Origin: Pseudomonadales bacterium | GTDB lineage: Bacteria > Pseudomonadota > Gammaproteobacteria > Pseudomonadales > UBA7434 | DNA length: 64,000 nt | NCBI GenBank assembly: GCA_965659815.1 | Contig: CBFHXO010000004.1 | Span: 181-64,180, forward strand | Direction: 5' to 3' | Shown here: positions 44,274-64,000 of the stretch, piece by piece | Position numbering within the stretch: position 1 is the stretch's first letter | How the letters are laid out: every line of letters starts with the position of its first letter | Program-made: the position numbers and the translations under genes | The notes under the pieces: model-generated | Databases searched by the model: none | Told to the model about the DNA's origin: nothing | The model's input: only the letters and a program-made list of their open reading frames with translations

Positions 44274-44362
44274 CTACTTATACTTTGATCAATGACTGCG
44301 GTGATTATCCCTACTTTAATCGCTGTTATAACCGCGGCGGGCAACTTTTGATGGGTAAATTT

Positions 44363-44419
44363 CTATTGGTAACTTGTTATTGGTAACTTGTTATTGGTAA
44401 CTTTGCTATCGGTAACTTT
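44363..44419. repeat. 14-bp tandem repeat (TTATTGGTAACTTG; two perfect and two degenerate copies)
   Basis: Read directly; it lies 90-146 nt upstream of the sulfotransferase start. Confidence 0.85.
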
Positions 44420-47558: not shown

Positions 47559-47620
47559 GTTTATATCCTAAACTCGAACCACTTGTTATTGATTTTTCAA
47601 TTTGCGCTGCACCATTTTGC

Positions 47621-48810
<1,190 letters not shown>

Positions 48811-55432: not shown

Positions 55433-56938
55433 CTACCCCTCCAGCAAACTATTTACCGCCTTGCTCCAGCCCGCATACAAGCCATCGGCGTCAGCGGCTG
55501 CCATGCTTGCCTGGTAGTCGTGCTCGCAGCACCAAATGTCGGCAATATCATCAAGACCGGCAAACACTCCAGCCCCAATACCAGCCAAACTTGCCGCCCC
55601 CCAGGCGGTTGCTTCGGCAACTGCCGGCACCTGAATTTGCGTTTGCAAGATATCGGCTAAAAACTGGCAAACCATACGATTGGCAACCAGGCCGCCATCG
55701 GCGCGCAACACACCAGAGCTTTGCGCCATATCAATAGTTTCAATATCGGCCATCATAGCGGCAACCAGGTCGCGGGTTTGATAAGCCTGCGCCTCCAGCG
55801 CCGCCCTGGCAATATGCGCCGATGTAGTATCGCGCCCCAGACCAACAATAGCGCCACGCACATCAGGGCGCCAGTAAGGCGCGCCCAGGCCGGTTAAGGC
55901 CGGCACAAAATAAACCCCTTCATTATTTGTCAGACTATTAGCCAGCGCCTCACTTTCTTTTGCCTCGCGAAACATGTTAAGCCCATCGCGCAACCACTGC
56001 ACAGCAGCACCGGCAATAAAAATAGAGCCCTCTAAGGCGTAATGACGCTGGCCATCAAGTTGATAGGCAACCGTGGTTATCAGCCGGTGCGCAGAAGTCA
56101 CTGGCTGCGCGCCCAGATTCAACAACATAAAACAACCGGTGCCATAGGTCGACTTAATCATGCCCTGTTCAAAGCAGGCCTGACCCACCAGCGCAGACTG
56201 CTGGTCGCCTATCATCGCGGTAATAGGCAGGTCTTTGCCCAGTAGCTGCGCTGCCGCCATACCAAATTCGCTAACGTTATCGCAAACCCTGGGCAACATA
56301 CTGGGCGGAATATTAAAGACCTGCAGCAATTTATCATCCCAGCTACCGGTGGCAATATTGAGCAATAGTGTTCGGGATGCATTTGTGGCATCGGTGGCAT
56401 GCACCCGACCTTCGGTTAATCGCCACAGTAAAAAACAATCGATCGTGCCAAATAGCAGCTCCCCTGCCTCGGCTCTTTGACGGGCGCCCTCGACATTATC
56501 GAGAATCCAGGCAATTTTGGTGGCCGAAAAATACGGATCCAACAGCAAACCAGTTGTTTCCTGAACCAGCGCTTCGTGGCCCTGGCCTTTCAACACCTCA
56601 CAATAGTCTGCAGTGCGACGATCTTGCCATACAATAGCGTTGTAAACCGGCTCCCCTGTTTGCCTGTCCCATACCACCGTCGTCTCTCGTTGGTTGGTAA
56701 TGCCGATCGCAACCGTGCGATTCAGGGCATCCGGGGCCGACAACACTGCGCGGCAGGTTGCCAGAGTATCGCGCCAGATTTCTTCCGCATCTTGCTCAAC
56801 CCAACCCGAATGTGGATAGGTCAGCGCCAGCTCCTGTTGCTCAACCGCACTGATACTGCCCTGAGCATCAAATAAAATCGCTCTTGAGCTGGTGGTGCCC
56901 TGGTCTATTGCTAGCAGTAATGGTTGTTGGATTGTCAT
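55433..56938 (-). CDS. glpK: glycerol kinase
   Basis: 501 aa. AIDQGTTSSR and GITNQRETTVVWD. Confidence 0.97.
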   Translation of the reverse strand: MTIQQPLLLAIDQGTTSSRAILFDAQGSISAVEQQELALTYPHSGWVEQDAEEIWRDTLATCRAVLSAPDALNRTVAIGITNQRETTVVWDRQTGEPVYNAIVWQDRRTADYCEVLKGQGHEALVQETTGLLLDPYFSATKIAWILDNVEGARQRAEAGELLFGTIDCFLLWRLTEGRVHATDATNASRTLLLNIATGSWDDKLLQVFNIPPSMLPRVCDNVSEFGMAAAQLLGKDLPITAMIGDQQSALVGQACFEQGMIKSTYGTGCFMLLNLGAQPVTSAHRLITTVAYQLDGQRHYALEGSIFIAGAAVQWLRDGLNMFREAKESEALANSLTNNEGVYFVPALTGLGAPYWRPDVRGAIVGLGRDTTSAHIARAALEAQAYQTRDLVAAMMADIETIDMAQSSGVLRADGGLVANRMVCQFLADILQTQIQVPAVAEATAWGAASLAGIGAGVFAGLDDIADIWCCEHDYQASMAAADADGLYAGWSKAVNSLLEG

Positions 56939-56940
56939 GG

Positions 56941-57020
56941 CTTATCCTGATTCTTATCCTATTTATCGTACTATGTCCGAGTACTAGTTCGAGTACTAGT
57001 TCGCGTACTATTTCCCGTAC
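56941..57020. promoter_or_regulatory. 12-bp-periodic tandem motif array immediately upstream of glpK
   Basis: CTTATCCT x2, then CGTACTATGTC, CGAGTACTAGTT x2 (perfect), CGCGTACTATTT and CCCGTAC. All are in 12-bp register, starting 3 nt from the ATG. Confidence 0.4.
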
Positions 57021-57271
57021 AAATTAATGCAGCCTATTAGTGCATGTACGAGAATAAAAATCGATTCGCTGGCCAATTTTTTTCCTGATGATCTAAGCCC
57101 TCTATCAGCGACCAAATGAGAGCACCCGCGCTTAAACAAAAATGTAATAAAAAAAATTTTTTTAATGCAAAAATAATTTTAACCCTTTTTTTTCAATCAC
57201 CTGAAGCGATTACCCAGGCATGCTCCGTGTTAAGTCTTCCCGTTGGCGTAAGTAGCCACAAACAAGCCAAG

Positions 57272-57280
57272 TTATCCACA
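57272..57280 (+). promoter_or_regulatory. consensus DnaA box TTATCCACA upstream of nrdA
   Basis: A perfect 9-mer is read directly. A degenerate second copy, AAATCCACA, lies at 57283-57291. Confidence 0.5.
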
Positions 57281-57313
57281 GAAAATCCACAGCAAACACC
57301 AAGAGTTTTGCCC

Positions 57314-57342
57314 TTGCATAATGGTCGCTACCGCACTATCTT
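57314..57342 (+). promoter_or_regulatory. candidate sigma-70 promoter of nrdAB
   Basis: TTGCAT-17 nt-TATCTT. The -10 element overlaps the first putative NrdR box. Confidence 0.35.
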
Positions 57343-57378
57343 GTACCCCGTGCCGATGCCAACCCCAAGATATAGGGT
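57331..57378 (+). promoter_or_regulatory. putative tandem NrdR boxes
   Basis: ccgCACTATCTTGTac (about 10/16 matches) and cccCAAGATATAGGGt (about 12/16 matches) to the recalled consensus acaCwAtATaTwGtgt. Centres are 32 bp apart. Confidence 0.5.
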
Positions 57379-57824
57379 TTTATCACCTCATATTTCGATT
57401 TAACCTCTGATTTGGTCATGGGTTCAATCAAGACCGCTTTGGCACGACCGAGGAAGTACGTATCTTATTCACTTAGAACGAATAACGTACAAATTGAACG
57501 GGCTCTATAAGCACAACCGCAGGCGGTTAAACCTATCAATATGTACCCATCTGACACGCAAACGCTGCCAAAGATGTTCTCTTCGTTGGCAGAAAGCGAG
57601 ATTTTTAGTTTATCGGGTGCTTGTGGACAAAGCGGGTATAGCGAGTAAGGCCATTGCATGGCGGGCTAATTTTTAAACAGACTAGTCAATATTTTGACAA
57701 GCAAAACTGTAATCCCCGAAAAAGGCAGAAATTAGGCAGAAACAGAGCAGCAAGTACAAGACCAATACAAGTAGTAAACACCATAACAACAAAACTGAAT
57801 AAAAGATCAGACTGAGGAGTCAAC

Positions 57825-60764
57825 ATGCAACAAACAGAGGCCAACGTTACCAGTAACAGCCCTGAGCAAACTAACAGCCCTGAGCGCACTAACAGCCCTG
57901 AGGAAAGTAAAAGCATAAACCCTGCTGCGAACAACCCAGCCGCAGCCCCGCTTAACTCCGACACCATTGATATGACGGCGACGGCACCAGGACAAGTCCG
58001 GGTTATCAAGCGTAATGGCACAGTAGTAACCTACGACCCCAGCAAAATCAGCGTCGCAATTACCAAAGCCTTTTTAGCAGTAGAAGGTGGCACAGCAGCG
58101 GCATCAAGCCGTATTCACGAAACCGTGGCTCAACTCACCGAACAGATCAGCGCAATATTCAAGCGTCGCATGCCATCAGGCGGCACGATTCATATCGAAG
58201 ATATCCAGGATCAGGTAGAGCTGGCCCTGATGCGCAGCGGCGAGCAAAAAGTCGCCCGCGACTATGTCCTGTACCGAGAGCAGCGCGCTCAGCTGCGCGC
58301 CGAGAAACAACAGGCAGCAGCCCTGCCCGAGAGCACAATTAACGTAGTGCTCGACGATGGCAGTAAGCAACCACTCGATATGCAACGGCTTAACACCATT
58401 GTCAACGAAGCCTGCCAGGGCCTTGACGATGTTAGCGCCAGCGAGATTCTTGAAGAAGCACTGAAAAACCTTTACGACGGTGTATCACACAGCGAAGTCA
58501 ATACTTCGCTGGTAATGACCGCACGCACCATGGTCGAAAAAGACCCTAACTACAGCTACGTGACTGCACGCTTGCTGCTCGACACCATTCGCGCCGAAGC
58601 GCTACAGTTTTTAGAAGTTGCCAATGAGGCAACGCAAAGTGAAATGTCGGCCTTATACGGCAAAGCCCTAAGCCAATATATTGCTAAAGGTATCGAGTTT
58701 GAATTGTTGTCACCCGAACTTGCCAGCTATGACCTGGAACAACTGGGCAAGGCGCTAAACGCTGAACGCGATTTGCAATTTAGCTATCTTGGCCTGCAAA
58801 CGCTTTACGACCGCTACTTTATTCATAAAGATGAAGTGCGCTTTGAGCTGCCACAAATCTTCTTTATGCGTGTCGCTATGGGTCTCGCAACGCAAGAAGA
58901 TGATAAAAACGCTCGCGCGATCGAGTTTTATAATCTGCTGTCGTCGTTCGATTATATGAGCTCCACGCCAACCCTGTTTAACTCAGGCACACTGCGCCCG
59001 CAATTATCATCTTGCTATTTAACCACTGTACCCGACAACCTCGACGGTATTTACAGCGCCATTCACGATAATGCCATGCTATCAAAATGGGCTGGCGGCC
59101 TGGGTAATGACTGGACACCAGTGCGAGCATTGGGTGCGTATATCAAAGGCACCAATGGCAAGTCACAAGGTGTGGTACCGTTTTTGAAAGTGGTTAATGA
59201 TACCGCTGTCGCCGTTAACCAAGGTGGCAAACGCAAAGGTGCGGTTTGTGCTTACCTGGAAACCTGGCACCTGGATATAGAGGAATTTTTAGAGCTGCGC
59301 AAAAACACCGGTGACGATCGCCGCCGTACCCACGATATGAATACTGCCAACTGGGTACCTGACTTGTTTATGAAGCGCGTATTCGAAGACAAGCAATGGA
59401 CCTTATTTACGCCAAATGATACGCCAGATTTGCACGACTTGTACGGTGCGGCCTTTGAGGCCCGCTACGAAGAGTACGAGCAAATGGCCGATGAAGGAAA
59501 AATTTCGGTGTTCCGCCGCGTGCAGGCGCAAGACCTATGGCGCAAAATGCTCGGCATGCTGTTTGAAACCGGCCACCCCTGGATCACCTTTAAAGACCCT
59601 TGCAACCTGCGCTCTCCGCAGCAGCACACTGGTGTGGTTCACTCATCTAATCTGTGTACCGAAATTACGCTTAACACCAATAAAGATGAAATTGCCGTGT
59701 GCAACCTGGGCTCGGTTAACCTGCCGCAGCATATAGGCGAAAACGGCCTGGACATCGACAAGCTGAAAAAGACTGTCGACACTGCTGTGCGTATGCTCGA
59801 TAACGTTATTGATATCAACTACTACTCGGTACCGCAGGCACGTACATCCAACCTGCGTCACCGCCCGGTGGGTATGGGCATTATGGGTTTTCAGGACGCC
59901 CTTTATAAACAGCATATTGCCTACGGCTCTGACGATGCGGTTGAATTTGCCGATCGCTCGATGGAAGCGGTTAGCTATTTTGCCATTCGAGCATCCAGCA
60001 ATCTGGCACTGGAGCGCGGCAGCTACTCAAGCTTTGAAGGTTCGCTTTGGAGCAATGGTGTTTTGCCTATCGACTCATTAAAAACGCTGGTAGAGCAACG
60101 CGGCGAAAACTTTATTGAAGTCGATAACAGCCAAACGCTTGATTGGAATGCACTGCGTGAAAAGGTCAAAGCCGATGGCATGCGTAACTCTAATGTTATG
60201 GCCATAGCGCCAACAGCCACCATTGCCAATATTACTGGTGTCTCTCAATCGATCGAACCGACGTATCAAAACCTGTATGTGAAATCGAACTTGTCGGGTG
60301 AATTCACAGTGATTAACCCCTACCTGGTGCGTGACTTAAAAACTCGCAAGCTCTGGGATAGCGTGATGGTTAACGATTTAAAACACTACGAAGGTAGCGT
60401 TCAGCAAATCGACCGCATTCCTGGCGACTTAAAGCAAATTTACGCTACCGCGTTTGAAGTTGAGCCACGCTGGATTGTCGATGCAGCCAGCCGTCGCCAA
60501 AAGTGGATTGACCAGGCCCAGTCACTTAACCTCTATATCAACAATGCCAGCGGCAAAAAACTCGATATTACTTATCGCATGGCCTGGTATCGCGGTTTAA
60601 AGACCACTTACTATCTCCGCTCACTGGCGGCAACCGGCACCGAGAAGTCAACCATTGAGTCGGACAAGCTCAACGCTGTTTCTTCGGGCAATGAACCCGT
60701 GCAGGCTGCACCGGTGCCCAAGGCTTGTTCAATCGATGACCCCGATTGTGAGGCTTGTCAGTAA
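57825..60764 (+). CDS. nrdA: ribonucleoside-diphosphate reductase class Ia alpha subunit
   Basis: 979 aa with duplicated ATP-cone regions. Active-site NLCTEI, and C-terminal Cys pair ...DPDCEACQ. GGAG lies upstream of the ATG. Confidence 0.97.
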   Translation: MQQTEANVTSNSPEQTNSPERTNSPEESKSINPAANNPAAAPLNSDTIDMTATAPGQVRVIKRNGTVVTYDPSKISVAITKAFLAVEGGTAAASSRIHETVAQLTEQISAIFKRRMPSGGTIHIEDIQDQVELALMRSGEQKVARDYVLYREQRAQLRAEKQQAAALPESTINVVLDDGSKQPLDMQRLNTIVNEACQGLDDVSASEILEEALKNLYDGVSHSEVNTSLVMTARTMVEKDPNYSYVTARLLLDTIRAEALQFLEVANEATQSEMSALYGKALSQYIAKGIEFELLSPELASYDLEQLGKALNAERDLQFSYLGLQTLYDRYFIHKDEVRFELPQIFFMRVAMGLATQEDDKNARAIEFYNLLSSFDYMSSTPTLFNSGTLRPQLSSCYLTTVPDNLDGIYSAIHDNAMLSKWAGGLGNDWTPVRALGAYIKGTNGKSQGVVPFLKVVNDTAVAVNQGGKRKGAVCAYLETWHLDIEEFLELRKNTGDDRRRTHDMNTANWVPDLFMKRVFEDKQWTLFTPNDTPDLHDLYGAAFEARYEEYEQMADEGKISVFRRVQAQDLWRKMLGMLFETGHPWITFKDPCNLRSPQQHTGVVHSSNLCTEITLNTNKDEIAVCNLGSVNLPQHIGENGLDIDKLKKTVDTAVRMLDNVIDINYYSVPQARTSNLRHRPVGMGIMGFQDALYKQHIAYGSDDAVEFADRSMEAVSYFAIRASSNLALERGSYSSFEGSLWSNGVLPIDSLKTLVEQRGENFIEVDNSQTLDWNALREKVKADGMRNSNVMAIAPTATIANITGVSQSIEPTYQNLYVKSNLSGEFTVINPYLVRDLKTRKLWDSVMVNDLKHYEGSVQQIDRIPGDLKQIYATAFEVEPRWIVDAASRRQKWIDQAQSLNLYINNASGKKLDITYRMAWYRGLKTTYYLRSLAATGTEKSTIESDKLNAVSSGNEPVQAAPVPKACSIDDPDCEACQ
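57854..57905 (+). repeat. in-frame 18-bp tandem repeat (TAACAGCCCTGAGCRMAC x2.9) encoding NSPEQT-NSPERT-NSPEES at the NrdA N-terminus
   Basis: Read directly from both DNA and translation. Confidence 0.9.
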
Positions 60765-60836
60765 GAGAATAAAAAACGGTTGAAATATTAGTAAACCATA
60801 ACAGCAAATTTATACCAAATAGATAGAGGATACCCC

Positions 60837-62198
60837 ATGATAAGTTGGGATGATTACCAAGAAGAAAGCACCGTAAGTCAAACGCCAGCAGCCAAAGCTG
60901 CCGCTATCGAAGCCAATACCCAACTGCTCGATGCAGCCCAGGCTGATATTGCCGTTAATACTGAAATGACTGAAAAAGTGGTTGATCAAGCCATGCAGGC
61001 TACAGCAACCGATGTAGAAGCACCGACTGCCGCAACACCACCAAACGATACACTTGATCGTGAAGCGCTGAACAAAGAGCCCAATCAAAACGCTGAGGCC
61101 GTTGAAAAAATTGCCGCTGCGGCAGAAGTTGTGGCCAATATGGATATCACACCGGGACTGGAAGAACTTGAAATGGGTGCTCAACGTGTGCAGGTTGACC
61201 AAAAACGCATGATTAACTGCCGCGCCGACCTCAACCAGCTGGTGCCGTTTAAATACGACTGGGCCTGGCAAAAATACCTCGATGGCTGCGCCAACCACTG
61301 GATGCCGCAAGAGGTGAATATGAATGCCGATATCGCGCTATGGAAAAGCGATGACGGTTTAAGTGAAGACGAGCGACTGATTGTCATGCGCTCGCTGGGT
61401 TACTTCTCTACTGCCGACTCACTGGTTGCCAATAACCTGGCGCTGGCGATTTATCGCCTGGTTACCAACCCTGAATGTCGCCAGTATATTTTGCGCCAGG
61501 CCTTTGAGGAAGCGATTCACACTCACGCTTACCAATACTGCATTGAATCGCTGGGCATGGATGAAGGTGAAGTCTTTAATATGTATCGCGAAGTGCCCTC
61601 GGTGGCCAAAAAAGCCTCGTGGAGCTTAAGCCATACCCATGCGCTAAGCGACCCAACCTTTACCACTGGCACCCCCGAAACCGACCAGGAGCTACTACGC
61701 AATCTGGTAGGCTTTTACGCGGTCACCGAAGGTATTTTCTTCTACTGCGGCTTCACCCAAATCCTCTCTATGGGTCGCCGTAATAAAATGACTGGCGTTG
61801 CCGAGCAGTTCCAGTACATTTTGCGTGACGAATCGATGCACCTTAACTTCGGCATTGATGTGATTAACCAGATCAAGTTGTACAACCCCCATCTCTGGAC
61901 CACCGAGTTCCAGGAATAAGTGATTCAAATTATTCTTGAAGGTACGCAAATTGAAATTGAATATGCACGTGACACCATGCCTCGCGGTGTATTGGGCATG
62001 AATGCGCAAATGATGGAAGGCTACTTACAGTTTATTGCCAACCGTCGGCTGGCGCAGCTGGGCTTGCCAGAGCAGTACCCCGGTGCTCAAAACCCCTTCC
62101 CGTGGATGTCTGAAATTATGGATCTGCGCAAAGAAAAGAACTTCTTTGAAACCCGGGTTATCGAGTATCAAACCGGTGGTGCGCTTAGCTGGGATTAA
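60837..62198 (+). pseudogene. nrdB: ribonucleotide reductase class Ia beta subunit (NrdB) interrupted by one in-frame TAA at 61917-61919 (segments 60837-61919 and 61920-62198, same frame)
   Basis: Both segments are in one frame. The N-terminal part holds the di-iron helices ([18 protein letters not shown]). The C-terminal part holds ...FPWMSE...NFFETRVIEYQTGGALSWD, the R1-binding tail. The TAA is followed directly by GTG. Confidence 0.8.
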
Positions 62199-62232
62199 GC
62201 CTTTAGCACTAAATAAGCCCTTAGGCAGAAAT

Positions 62233-62262
62233 AAAAAAGGACAGCCAAAGCTGTCCTTTTTT
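62233..62262. terminator. bidirectional Rho-independent terminator between nrdB and the convergent lipoprotein gene
   Basis: AAAAAA-GGACAGC-caaa-GCTGTCC-TTTTTT. Confidence 0.8.
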
Positions 62263-62287
62263 AATGCCTTGCGAAAAGCCAGACAAT

Positions 62288-62797
62288 CTATTTGAATTTA
62301 ATACCAGTTGACCTTGACACGCTCTCGCCGCCTCCCATCGTATGGGTCAAGCCCGAATTATAAATAAACCAGCCATCCTGAACCCGGTCATAGCTCACAT
62401 TAACTCTAAGATGCATAGTTTCATCGGATTGATACCCAAATACAGACCGAAAAGTAAAGGGCCCTTTACAACTCACAAGAATCAATGAGTTAGTCTGTGA
62501 CAGAATCGAAATCTCATCGCACTGACCATTTTTAAGTCCACGGTAAGATGACGTGACCGTCAACTTGTGCCAACCTTTGGTCGTATCAATCGTTCTTTTC
62601 GCCTGACTCGAAAAATATTGTCTCACATCATCCAGGCTTTCACTTTTTTGTGAGGCTTCCATATAGTCGAGAAACACATCCATACCAGGATGTTGGCGAT
62701 GCTCCTGATTTGCAAATCGAGTATCGACGCTGGCGCAGGATGCCAGCAATAGCGTTACGGCAATCAGCAAACTAAATCTTCGCAAGCAACTAATCAT
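62288..62797 (-). CDS. hypothetical lipoprotein
   Basis: 169 aa with lipobox LLLASC after a signal peptide. I recognise no family. Confidence 0.6.
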   Translation of the reverse strand: MISCLRRFSLLIAVTLLLASCASVDTRFANQEHRQHPGMDVFLDYMEASQKSESLDDVRQYFSSQAKRTIDTTKGWHKLTVTSSYRGLKNGQCDEISILSQTNSLILVSCKGPFTFRSVFGYQSDETMHLRVNVSYDRVQDGWFIYNSGLTHTMGGGESVSRSTGIKFK

Positions 62798-62923
62798 TTT
62801 TACAAGCTCTCTTATTTATCTATTAACAAATCGTTTTTAACACGCGACATTTAACTCTAGTCAACATGGCTGAATCAATCTGGCCGGCTAGCACTGCCTT
62901 GCTGTGCACATGGTACAGCTCCG

Positions 62924-63634
62924 TCACGATACGCCAGCCCTGTTAGGAGCCAAATGCATCGTAATGGGAAACCCTACTCTCTCTGACCCCACAACGGCAG
63001 ACCAACTGACCAGGGAATACTTCACGCCTTTTTCAATGGGCACAGACTCATGAAGGTAAAGGTGATCCGAAGGAAAAAAAACCAGATCGCCAGCCTTGGG
63101 TTGATAAGTATAGTTCAAGTGGCCAAACCTTAGCCCACCACCTTTAAATTTATCGTTAAGATAAACCAGAATACTCACATCACGGTCAAAAACCTTATAC
63201 CACTGCTTATTTTCATTTAACTCTTCACTGTCTGAGTGGCTTTTATACAAACCACCCACGTTATACCGCATTAATTTGGGCGGCTCAAAAAACTCAATCT
63301 GTTGACCAATCACCGGCTCAACGCAGCTGACAATCGCACGGTTAATCCACGCGTTTAAAAGATCCTGATGAGCCCGCATGTCGATTCCGCGAGCGACCCT
63401 AGCAGGGTCGCGCTTTTGCACATTTCTACCTTCAGCTAACGACCGCTCCTCATCTTTTAAAGTCAACCAGTTCGAACGTTGCTGATCGGCTAAGCGGATA
63501 AGTTTTTTACACTCTGTTTTAGAAAATAAACCAGAATAGATATGCAAACCAACAGGCGGTGGCCGGTTGGGAGACGGGTTGCCGCAACACTCAAGAAATG
63601 CTTTTCCACTTCGGCAATAACACGGTCCGCTCAA
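62924..63634 (-). CDS. SEC-C motif protein fused to a prolyl-4-hydroxylase-like 2OG-Fe(II) oxygenase domain
   Basis: 236 aa. N-terminal GPCYCRSGKAFLECCG, H-x-D (HSDSE), a distal His (LYLHES) and a basic residue (KYSLVSW). Confidence 0.72.
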   Translation of the reverse strand: MSGPCYCRSGKAFLECCGNPSPNRPPPVGLHIYSGLFSKTECKKLIRLADQQRSNWLTLKDEERSLAEGRNVQKRDPARVARGIDMRAHQDLLNAWINRAIVSCVEPVIGQQIEFFEPPKLMRYNVGGLYKSHSDSEELNENKQWYKVFDRDVSILVYLNDKFKGGGLRFGHLNYTYQPKAGDLVFFPSDHLYLHESVPIEKGVKYSLVSWSAVVGSERVGFPITMHLAPNRAGVS

Positions 63635-63730
63635 AACTTCGCTCTCTACTTTTTGCCAATTAACTTATTTAGTAAGTTATTTATTCAGTTAGCGATGGGT
63701 GCTTTAACTCCGTTAAACCACCACTATCGA

Positions 63731-64000
63731 CTAACGATAAAAGGTTTTTATGCAGTCACAAATATAGTCGATAGTATTGTCAGTCAATTGCGCTGCCGAT
63801 GGCAACCATACACCCCGCGCACCGACATCGTTAGATACTGTATGCTCGCCCTCAAGCTGGTATGCTGGCTGCTTATTGATGGGTGGGTACATAACCCGCG
63901 TACCAATTTGCTGCTGTTTTAAAAATTGCATAAGTTCGTCGCGCGACTGGGCCATTGCATCGATAAACCAGGGCGTAGTGTTAACTAAATCCTGATCAAA
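63731..64000 (-). CDS. DegT/DnrJ/EryC1/StrS-family sugar aminotransferase, C-terminal part (5' end lies beyond the window)
   Basis: The frame is open to the window edge (FDQDLVNTTPWFIDAMAQSRDELMQFLKQQQIGTRVMYPPINKQPAY...). This is the typical DegT C-terminal pattern. Confidence 0.8.
   Translation of the reverse strand, partial: FDQDLVNTTPWFIDAMAQSRDELMQFLKQQQIGTRVMYPPINKQPAYQLEGEHTVSNDVGARGVWLPSAAQLTDNTIDYICDCIKTFYR

Follow-up and report, generated by a model that had tools for sequence, protein, structure and literature searches.

The closest described counterpart of the gene considered here is the ordinary, Pseudomonas-type class Ia NrdB (NCBIfam NF005550), a beta subunit of ribonucleotide reductase (RNR). 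In that family, as in the window (the whole 64,000-nucleotide stretch of DNA that was analysed), nrdA lies directly upstream of nrdB, and NrdB begins with a long N-terminal extension rich in Ala and Glu. The likeness extends to a colinear HMM match, six metal ligands, Tyr232, Tyr444 and the C-terminal tail. The closest solved structure is PDB 6y2n, which was used together with the Chlamydia R2 structures 1syy and 2ani. The record of the window alone, however, has a TAA at codon 361 and altered residues at 349 and 365.

An RNR encoded by two adjacent reading frames, as nrdB appears to be in the window, is found in Pseudomonas aeruginosa, where NrdJa and NrdJb make up a split class II enzyme (PMC4520616). 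The split in the window differs in that it is private to one sequence record and falls, according to a structure model, inside a core helix. A third point of comparison is provided by short-read miscalls and 8-oxoguanine artefacts (PMC4787001; PMC3141275), which the private bases of the window resemble in being dominated by G>T, clustered and confined to one record. They depart from those artefacts in including one A>C, and the known error motifs (GGC, and 3-mers ending in GG) are absent beside the four positions concerned.

Read directly from the sequence, nrdB of the window begins on the forward strand with an ATG at 60837, preceded by GAGGA at 60826-60830, and continues through 360 sense codons to an in-frame TAA at 61917-61919 (first piece, 60837-61919). 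The stop abuts a GTG at 61920, from which 92 further codons are read in the same frame to a second TAA at 62196-62198 (second piece, 61920-62198, also on the forward strand). The first-pass annotation had described such a split, with 360 and 92 codons around a TAA-GTG junction, and its coordinates are exact. An AGGA at 61912-61915 on the forward strand, 4 nt upstream of the GTG, is a possible but weak ribosome-binding site. The preceding nrdA (57825-60764, forward strand) encodes an intact class Ia alpha subunit of 979 aa, with two ATP-cone stretches, matches to PF02867, PF03477 and PF00317 and a score of 1781 bits against NF005544; it is the sole RNR alpha-type gene of the assembly. The terminator reported after the second segment is also readable directly from the sequence, as a two-way intrinsic terminator at 62233-62262 of the form A6-GGACAGC-CAAA-GCTGTCC-T6. 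It was not listed by a consensus terminator scan, a likely cause being that pairing of the A and T runs can lengthen the stem.

The two pieces are colinear parts of one protein. Both Pfam PF00268 and the NrdB equivalog NF005550 run colinearly across the stop, with the first piece matching NF005550 positions 11-290 at 511.7 bits, above the equivalog cut-off of 309, and the second matching positions 293-383 at 164 bits. Since the match to the first piece stops at model position 290 and that to the second resumes at 293 with its residue 2, a single codon has been replaced with no insertion or deletion, in agreement with the earlier view that the gene holds no frameshift. The first piece carries all six metal ligands (D194, E225, H228, E298, E332 and H335) and the radical-bearing Tyr232. 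These were assigned by alignment to PDB 6y2n, 2ani and 1syy and from columns that are invariant in 33 diverse homologues, which bears out the conserved ligands noted at first. The radical tyrosine sits four residues past the first His ligand, as class Ia NrdB requires.

Helix 356-380 is completed in the second piece, which also contains the last core helix and the C-terminal tail; Tyr444 and the end that binds the alpha subunit belong to this tail. Therefore, Tyr444 and the alpha-binding tail are not on the chain of the metal site in the window, while they are on that same chain in all conspecific contigs. In the R2 protein of Escherichia coli, Y356 and the C-terminal peptide are needed for radical transfer to, and binding of, the alpha subunit. 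By analogy, the N-terminal piece alone would be unable to bind NrdA or to pass the radical on. In a structure model built on the 33-sequence alignment, of low overall confidence (pLDDT 58.7) but with about 90 for residues 351-370, residue 361 falls five residues into core helix 356-380, and helix 321-349 ends with E349.

The codon replaced by the stop can be read from relatives. Forty related genomes were searched, and codon 361 was read in 29 fetched loci, 15 of them congeneric and 14 belonging to other families within the order. The codon is GAA or GAG in 27 of them, AAG in one and GAC in one, and a stop in none; the suggestion that orthologues might share the split, which would have made it a conserved feature, thus fails in all 29. 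The following codon encodes Val in most relatives and is often GTG, so that the GTG of the window is the ancestral codon for Val362. Two further oddities are private to this genome when it is compared with the relatives, KLENP to KLYNP and QMIL to QIIL. The residues affected, E349 and M365, are like E361 invariant in the 33 diverse homologues, and neither Tyr349 nor Ile365 occurs in any relative. Within the genus, nrdB of this genome has five unique substitutions, a number that is not higher than in other species.

Two nrdB matches were found in each of two genus members, G014 (contigs C11 and C17) and G006 (C441 and C66). The copies of G014 score equally and are on different contigs, while the second copy of G006 is only 48% identical.

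Copies of the gene from the same species are more informative still. An uninterrupted NrdB of 453 aa, P0001, is encoded on 15 contigs in a set of 5.8 billion proteins. It is identical to the protein of the window at 450 of 453 positions and differs only at 349 (Glu in P0001, Tyr in the window), 361 (Glu, stop) and 365 (Met, Ile). The exact 360-aa and 92-aa products, by comparison, occur in a collection of 15 billion proteins on this contig only. Ten of the P0001 contigs (L113-L122), each from a metagenome sample of its own (Tara Oceans, further marine assemblies in ENA, and one Logan run), were compared as DNA with positions 55837-64000 of the window. Gene order is the same, and identity is 99.81-99.93% over 5-8 kb.

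The differences in nrdB are restricted to a private stretch of 51 nt at 61881-61931 on the forward strand, in which the window and the other copies read, respectively, T and G at 61881, C and A at 61883, T and G at 61917, and T and G at 61931. The first two changes together convert Glu349 to Tyr (GAA>TAC), the third converts Glu361 (GAA) to the stop (TAA) and the fourth converts Met365 to Ile (ATG>ATT). All four are transversions on one strand, three G>T and one A>C, and none is synonymous. Codon 361 is GAA in every conspecific contig, one of the sense codons that had been proposed as lying one substitution away. The gene was not, as had been supposed, intact apart from the stop, given that the private Glu349Tyr and Met365Ile changes flank it at invariant residues. 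Elsewhere in the 8.1 kb, only position 58392 differs from most of the ten contigs, and nrdB of the window is identical at 1358 of 1362 bases to L113, L117-L119, L121 and L122, with the four differences accounting for the remainder. An eleventh contig, L127, was recovered from a JGI metagenome collection by a pattern scan in which the four bases were left free. It reads G, A, G and G at these positions, and its nrdB is uninterrupted. The AGGA upstream of the GTG is unchanged in the intact conspecific genes, as in L127, which reads ttccaggaagaagtg.

In short, the split occurs in none of the 29 relatives and in none of the 11 conspecific contigs compared as DNA. It is neither conserved nor evolved, and is found in one record only, where two other damaging changes accompany it within 51 bases. 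As judged from the sequences, nrdB of the species is an ordinary single gene of 453 codons.

Two other origins for the changes were considered and rejected. A decaying pseudogene would show scattered lesions, and here all four differences lie within 51 nt and unique substitutions are not raised. Gene conversion from a diverged nrdB would have brought accompanying synonymous differences, of which there are none, and the Tyr349 and Ile365 variants are found in no relative.

Some conspecific NrdB proteins (P0004, P0005 and P0122) are 457 aa long, with a four-residue duplication that gives KVVDKVVE in place of KVVD. The site is in the low-complexity N-terminal extension, at about residues 45-52 (window 60960-60990).

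The quality of the rest of the record was assessed by counting private positions, defined as those at which three or more independent conspecific contigs all disagree with this genome, at four other places on contigs C1, C2 and C3. Six other private positions, of mixed types, were found in the 54.1 kb checked, with no cluster of three or more. The background rate of private positions is thus 1.1e-4 per base, at which four in a given stretch of 51 bases have a probability of about 4e-11; after correction for all windows, the probability of the nrdB cluster is about 2e-6. The record is clean overall, and the burst in nrdB is a solitary local event. A private pair 3 nt apart at positions 74206 and 74209 of contig C1 (genome G000), where only 3 conspecific contigs are available, is the sole other close pair in the 54 kb. 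The assembly consists of 213 contigs and contains gaps of about 10 N, which suggests a scaffolded short-read draft. A genome-wide census of same-frame ORF pairs parted by one stop gave 279 candidates, a count that is unspecific without homology data.

The stop is probably a private, local defect of one sequence record rather than a property of the gene of the organism. The four-base burst would most likely be technical in origin, and could represent miscalls in a cluster, or a template molecule with oxidative damage that entered the consensus at thin coverage. In the living population, NrdB would then be made as one chain and act as a normal class Ia beta subunit. Schirmer et al. found clustering of Illumina substitution errors, with T as the usual misreading of G (PMC4787001). 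In the same study A>C is not among the favoured miscalls, which weighs against a technical origin. In the lagging-phase error described by Nakamura et al., the wrong call repeats the one or two bases before it (PMC3141275). With reads in the forward direction, this pattern matches only two of the four positions, and the GGC expected upstream is absent, such that this sequence-specific error was rejected as the source.

Further points weigh against a fault of the record. A consensus normally outvotes random errors, so that very thin coverage or a single dominant template is needed. The rest of the 54 kb is clean, and therefore the record is not generally error-prone. Finally, 8-oxoguanine formed in vivo yields both G>T and A>C, and so the same changes are also expected from real oxidative damage.

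That last point leads to the strongest rival, namely that the burst is a real mutation cluster of very recent date, in the cell or sub-population that was sampled, such as a patch of oxidative damage or of error-prone repair on one strand, which left nrdB null. We consider this unlikely, yet clearly ahead of the readings that follow. Strand-coordinated G>T and A>C changes are a signature of 8-oxoguanine, and the otherwise good quality of the record, with its 6 private positions in 54 kb, speaks for a genuine event. The allele is, however, absent from the 15 contigs that encode the intact protein and from the further JGI contig, and four changes in 51 nt, against a rate of about 1e-4 per nt elsewhere, require a single rare event. 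A lineage with such a burst would have no future, unless it were sustained by something not seen in the assembly.

Whether the cell could lose NrdB bears directly on this rival. A first-pass suggestion was that a recent inactivating mutation would be tolerated only if an RNR of another class were present, and that nrdJ or nrdDG should be sought in the genome. With models for NrdJ (TIGR02504), NrdD (PF13597), PF02867 and PF00268, only this nrdAB pair was found in the assembly, which is 94.6% complete. The counts are one nrdA, one nrdB, no nrdJ above the cut-off and no nrdD; the other class on which tolerance had been made to depend is thus missing from the assembly, which counts against a real mutation, although a second RNR could be absent from an assembly of this completeness. 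Because the assembly holds no other RNR, a true nrdB null would probably be lethal, as the only known route to dNTPs would be removed. The N-terminal piece, lacking Tyr444 and the alpha-binding tail, would not restore radical transfer to NrdA.

A further rival takes NrdB to be made as two polypeptides, with translation stopping at the TAA and restarting at the abutting GTG by means of the AGGA, such that 360-aa and 92-aa chains assemble and Tyr349 and Ile365 compensate for the cut. We regard this as very unlikely. In its favour, TAA and GTG are adjacent, with AGGA at 61912-61915, and the changed residues all cluster around the break, where helix 321-349 ends and helix 356-380 begins. A split RNR is also known in nature in the form of NrdJa and NrdJb of P. 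aeruginosa (PMC4520616). Yet the split is in none of the 29 relatives or the conspecific copies that were checked, and both the GTG and the AGGA predate the stop, having been inherited rather than evolved alongside it. The break falls about 5 residues inside a core helix of the model rather than at a domain border. Nor could a lethal nonsense change await compensation, and nothing else has diverged in the genome.

To our knowledge, no natural split NrdB has been described, and none was found among about 8,000 homologues scored. The more specific form of the proposal, in which the allele is real and a strain lives with a two-piece NrdB through TAA/GTG restart, with Tyr349 and Ile365 stabilising the cut helix, is a shade more doubtful again. 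The four options that had been left unranked at first can now be ordered, such that a sequencing or assembly fault or a recent private lesion is favoured, while termination and reinitiation at the GTG loses its ground, as the split is absent from relatives and conspecifics and the restart elements predate it.

Readthrough of the TAA, by a suppressor tRNA or a programmed mechanism that would yield full-length NrdB, is scarcely credible: the frame is open and conserved past the stop, but the stop is private to the record and in no relative, no UUA anticodon was found by ARAGORN among the 33 tRNAs and the tmRNA of the whole assembly (a set from which tRNA-Glu, tRNA-Ile and tRNA-Trp are missing), TAA also ends nrdA and the second piece of nrdB and is thus an ordinary stop here, and of the stop codons in bacteria TAA is the one least often read through.

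Under the favoured reading, in which the record and not the organism is at fault, the locus serves as a quality flag, given that a public draft genome presents a broken copy of an essential gene that is intact in the species. Automated annotation is expected to call nrdB of the window as two genes or as a pseudogene. The comparison also provides a cheap test that needs no reads, since conspecific metagenome contigs at about 99.9% identity reveal the changes that are private to one record. Were the variant real, a strand-coordinated burst of mutation would have been caught in a wild marine bacterium, a rare view. A less likely outcome, a natural two-piece NrdB, would be the first natural split of a class I radical-generating subunit.

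The four changes share one further property, in that all raise the local self-complementarity of the sequence (window 61877-61886 and 61911-61938) and convert two imperfect inverted repeats to perfect ones. At 61877-61886, GTTGGAAAAC becomes the perfect 10-base palindrome GTTGTACAAC. In the second repeat, GAAGAA..TGATTC becomes GAATAA..TTATTC, with a stem of 6 bp and a loop of 10 nt, or a stem of 9 bp if one G-T pair is included. When random sets of four substitutions were simulated post hoc, 33 of 20,000 did as well (chance about 0.002). The changes bring no improvement in the predicted DNA folding energy (-8.0 kcal/mol, against -8.3; rank 48 of 81). An origin by quasi-palindrome correction or template switching was rejected, given that the changes are on both arms, with no clean templated correction of one arm, and that there is no gain in folding energy. 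The pattern may reflect a polymerase or sequencing process linked to hairpins, or chance.

Repeats elsewhere in the window vary within the species. The copy number of a repeat array in the pheS-pheT spacer (window 47559-47670) differs between conspecific contigs, with L123 (9880-9960) holding one CTGCATAAAACATGT unit more than the window and L125 an N-filled gap at that place. In an intergenic stretch at window 44362-44405, a 14-nt tandem unit, TATTGGTAACTTGT, is present in two copies more than in the conspecific L123, and constitutes a small variable-number repeat.
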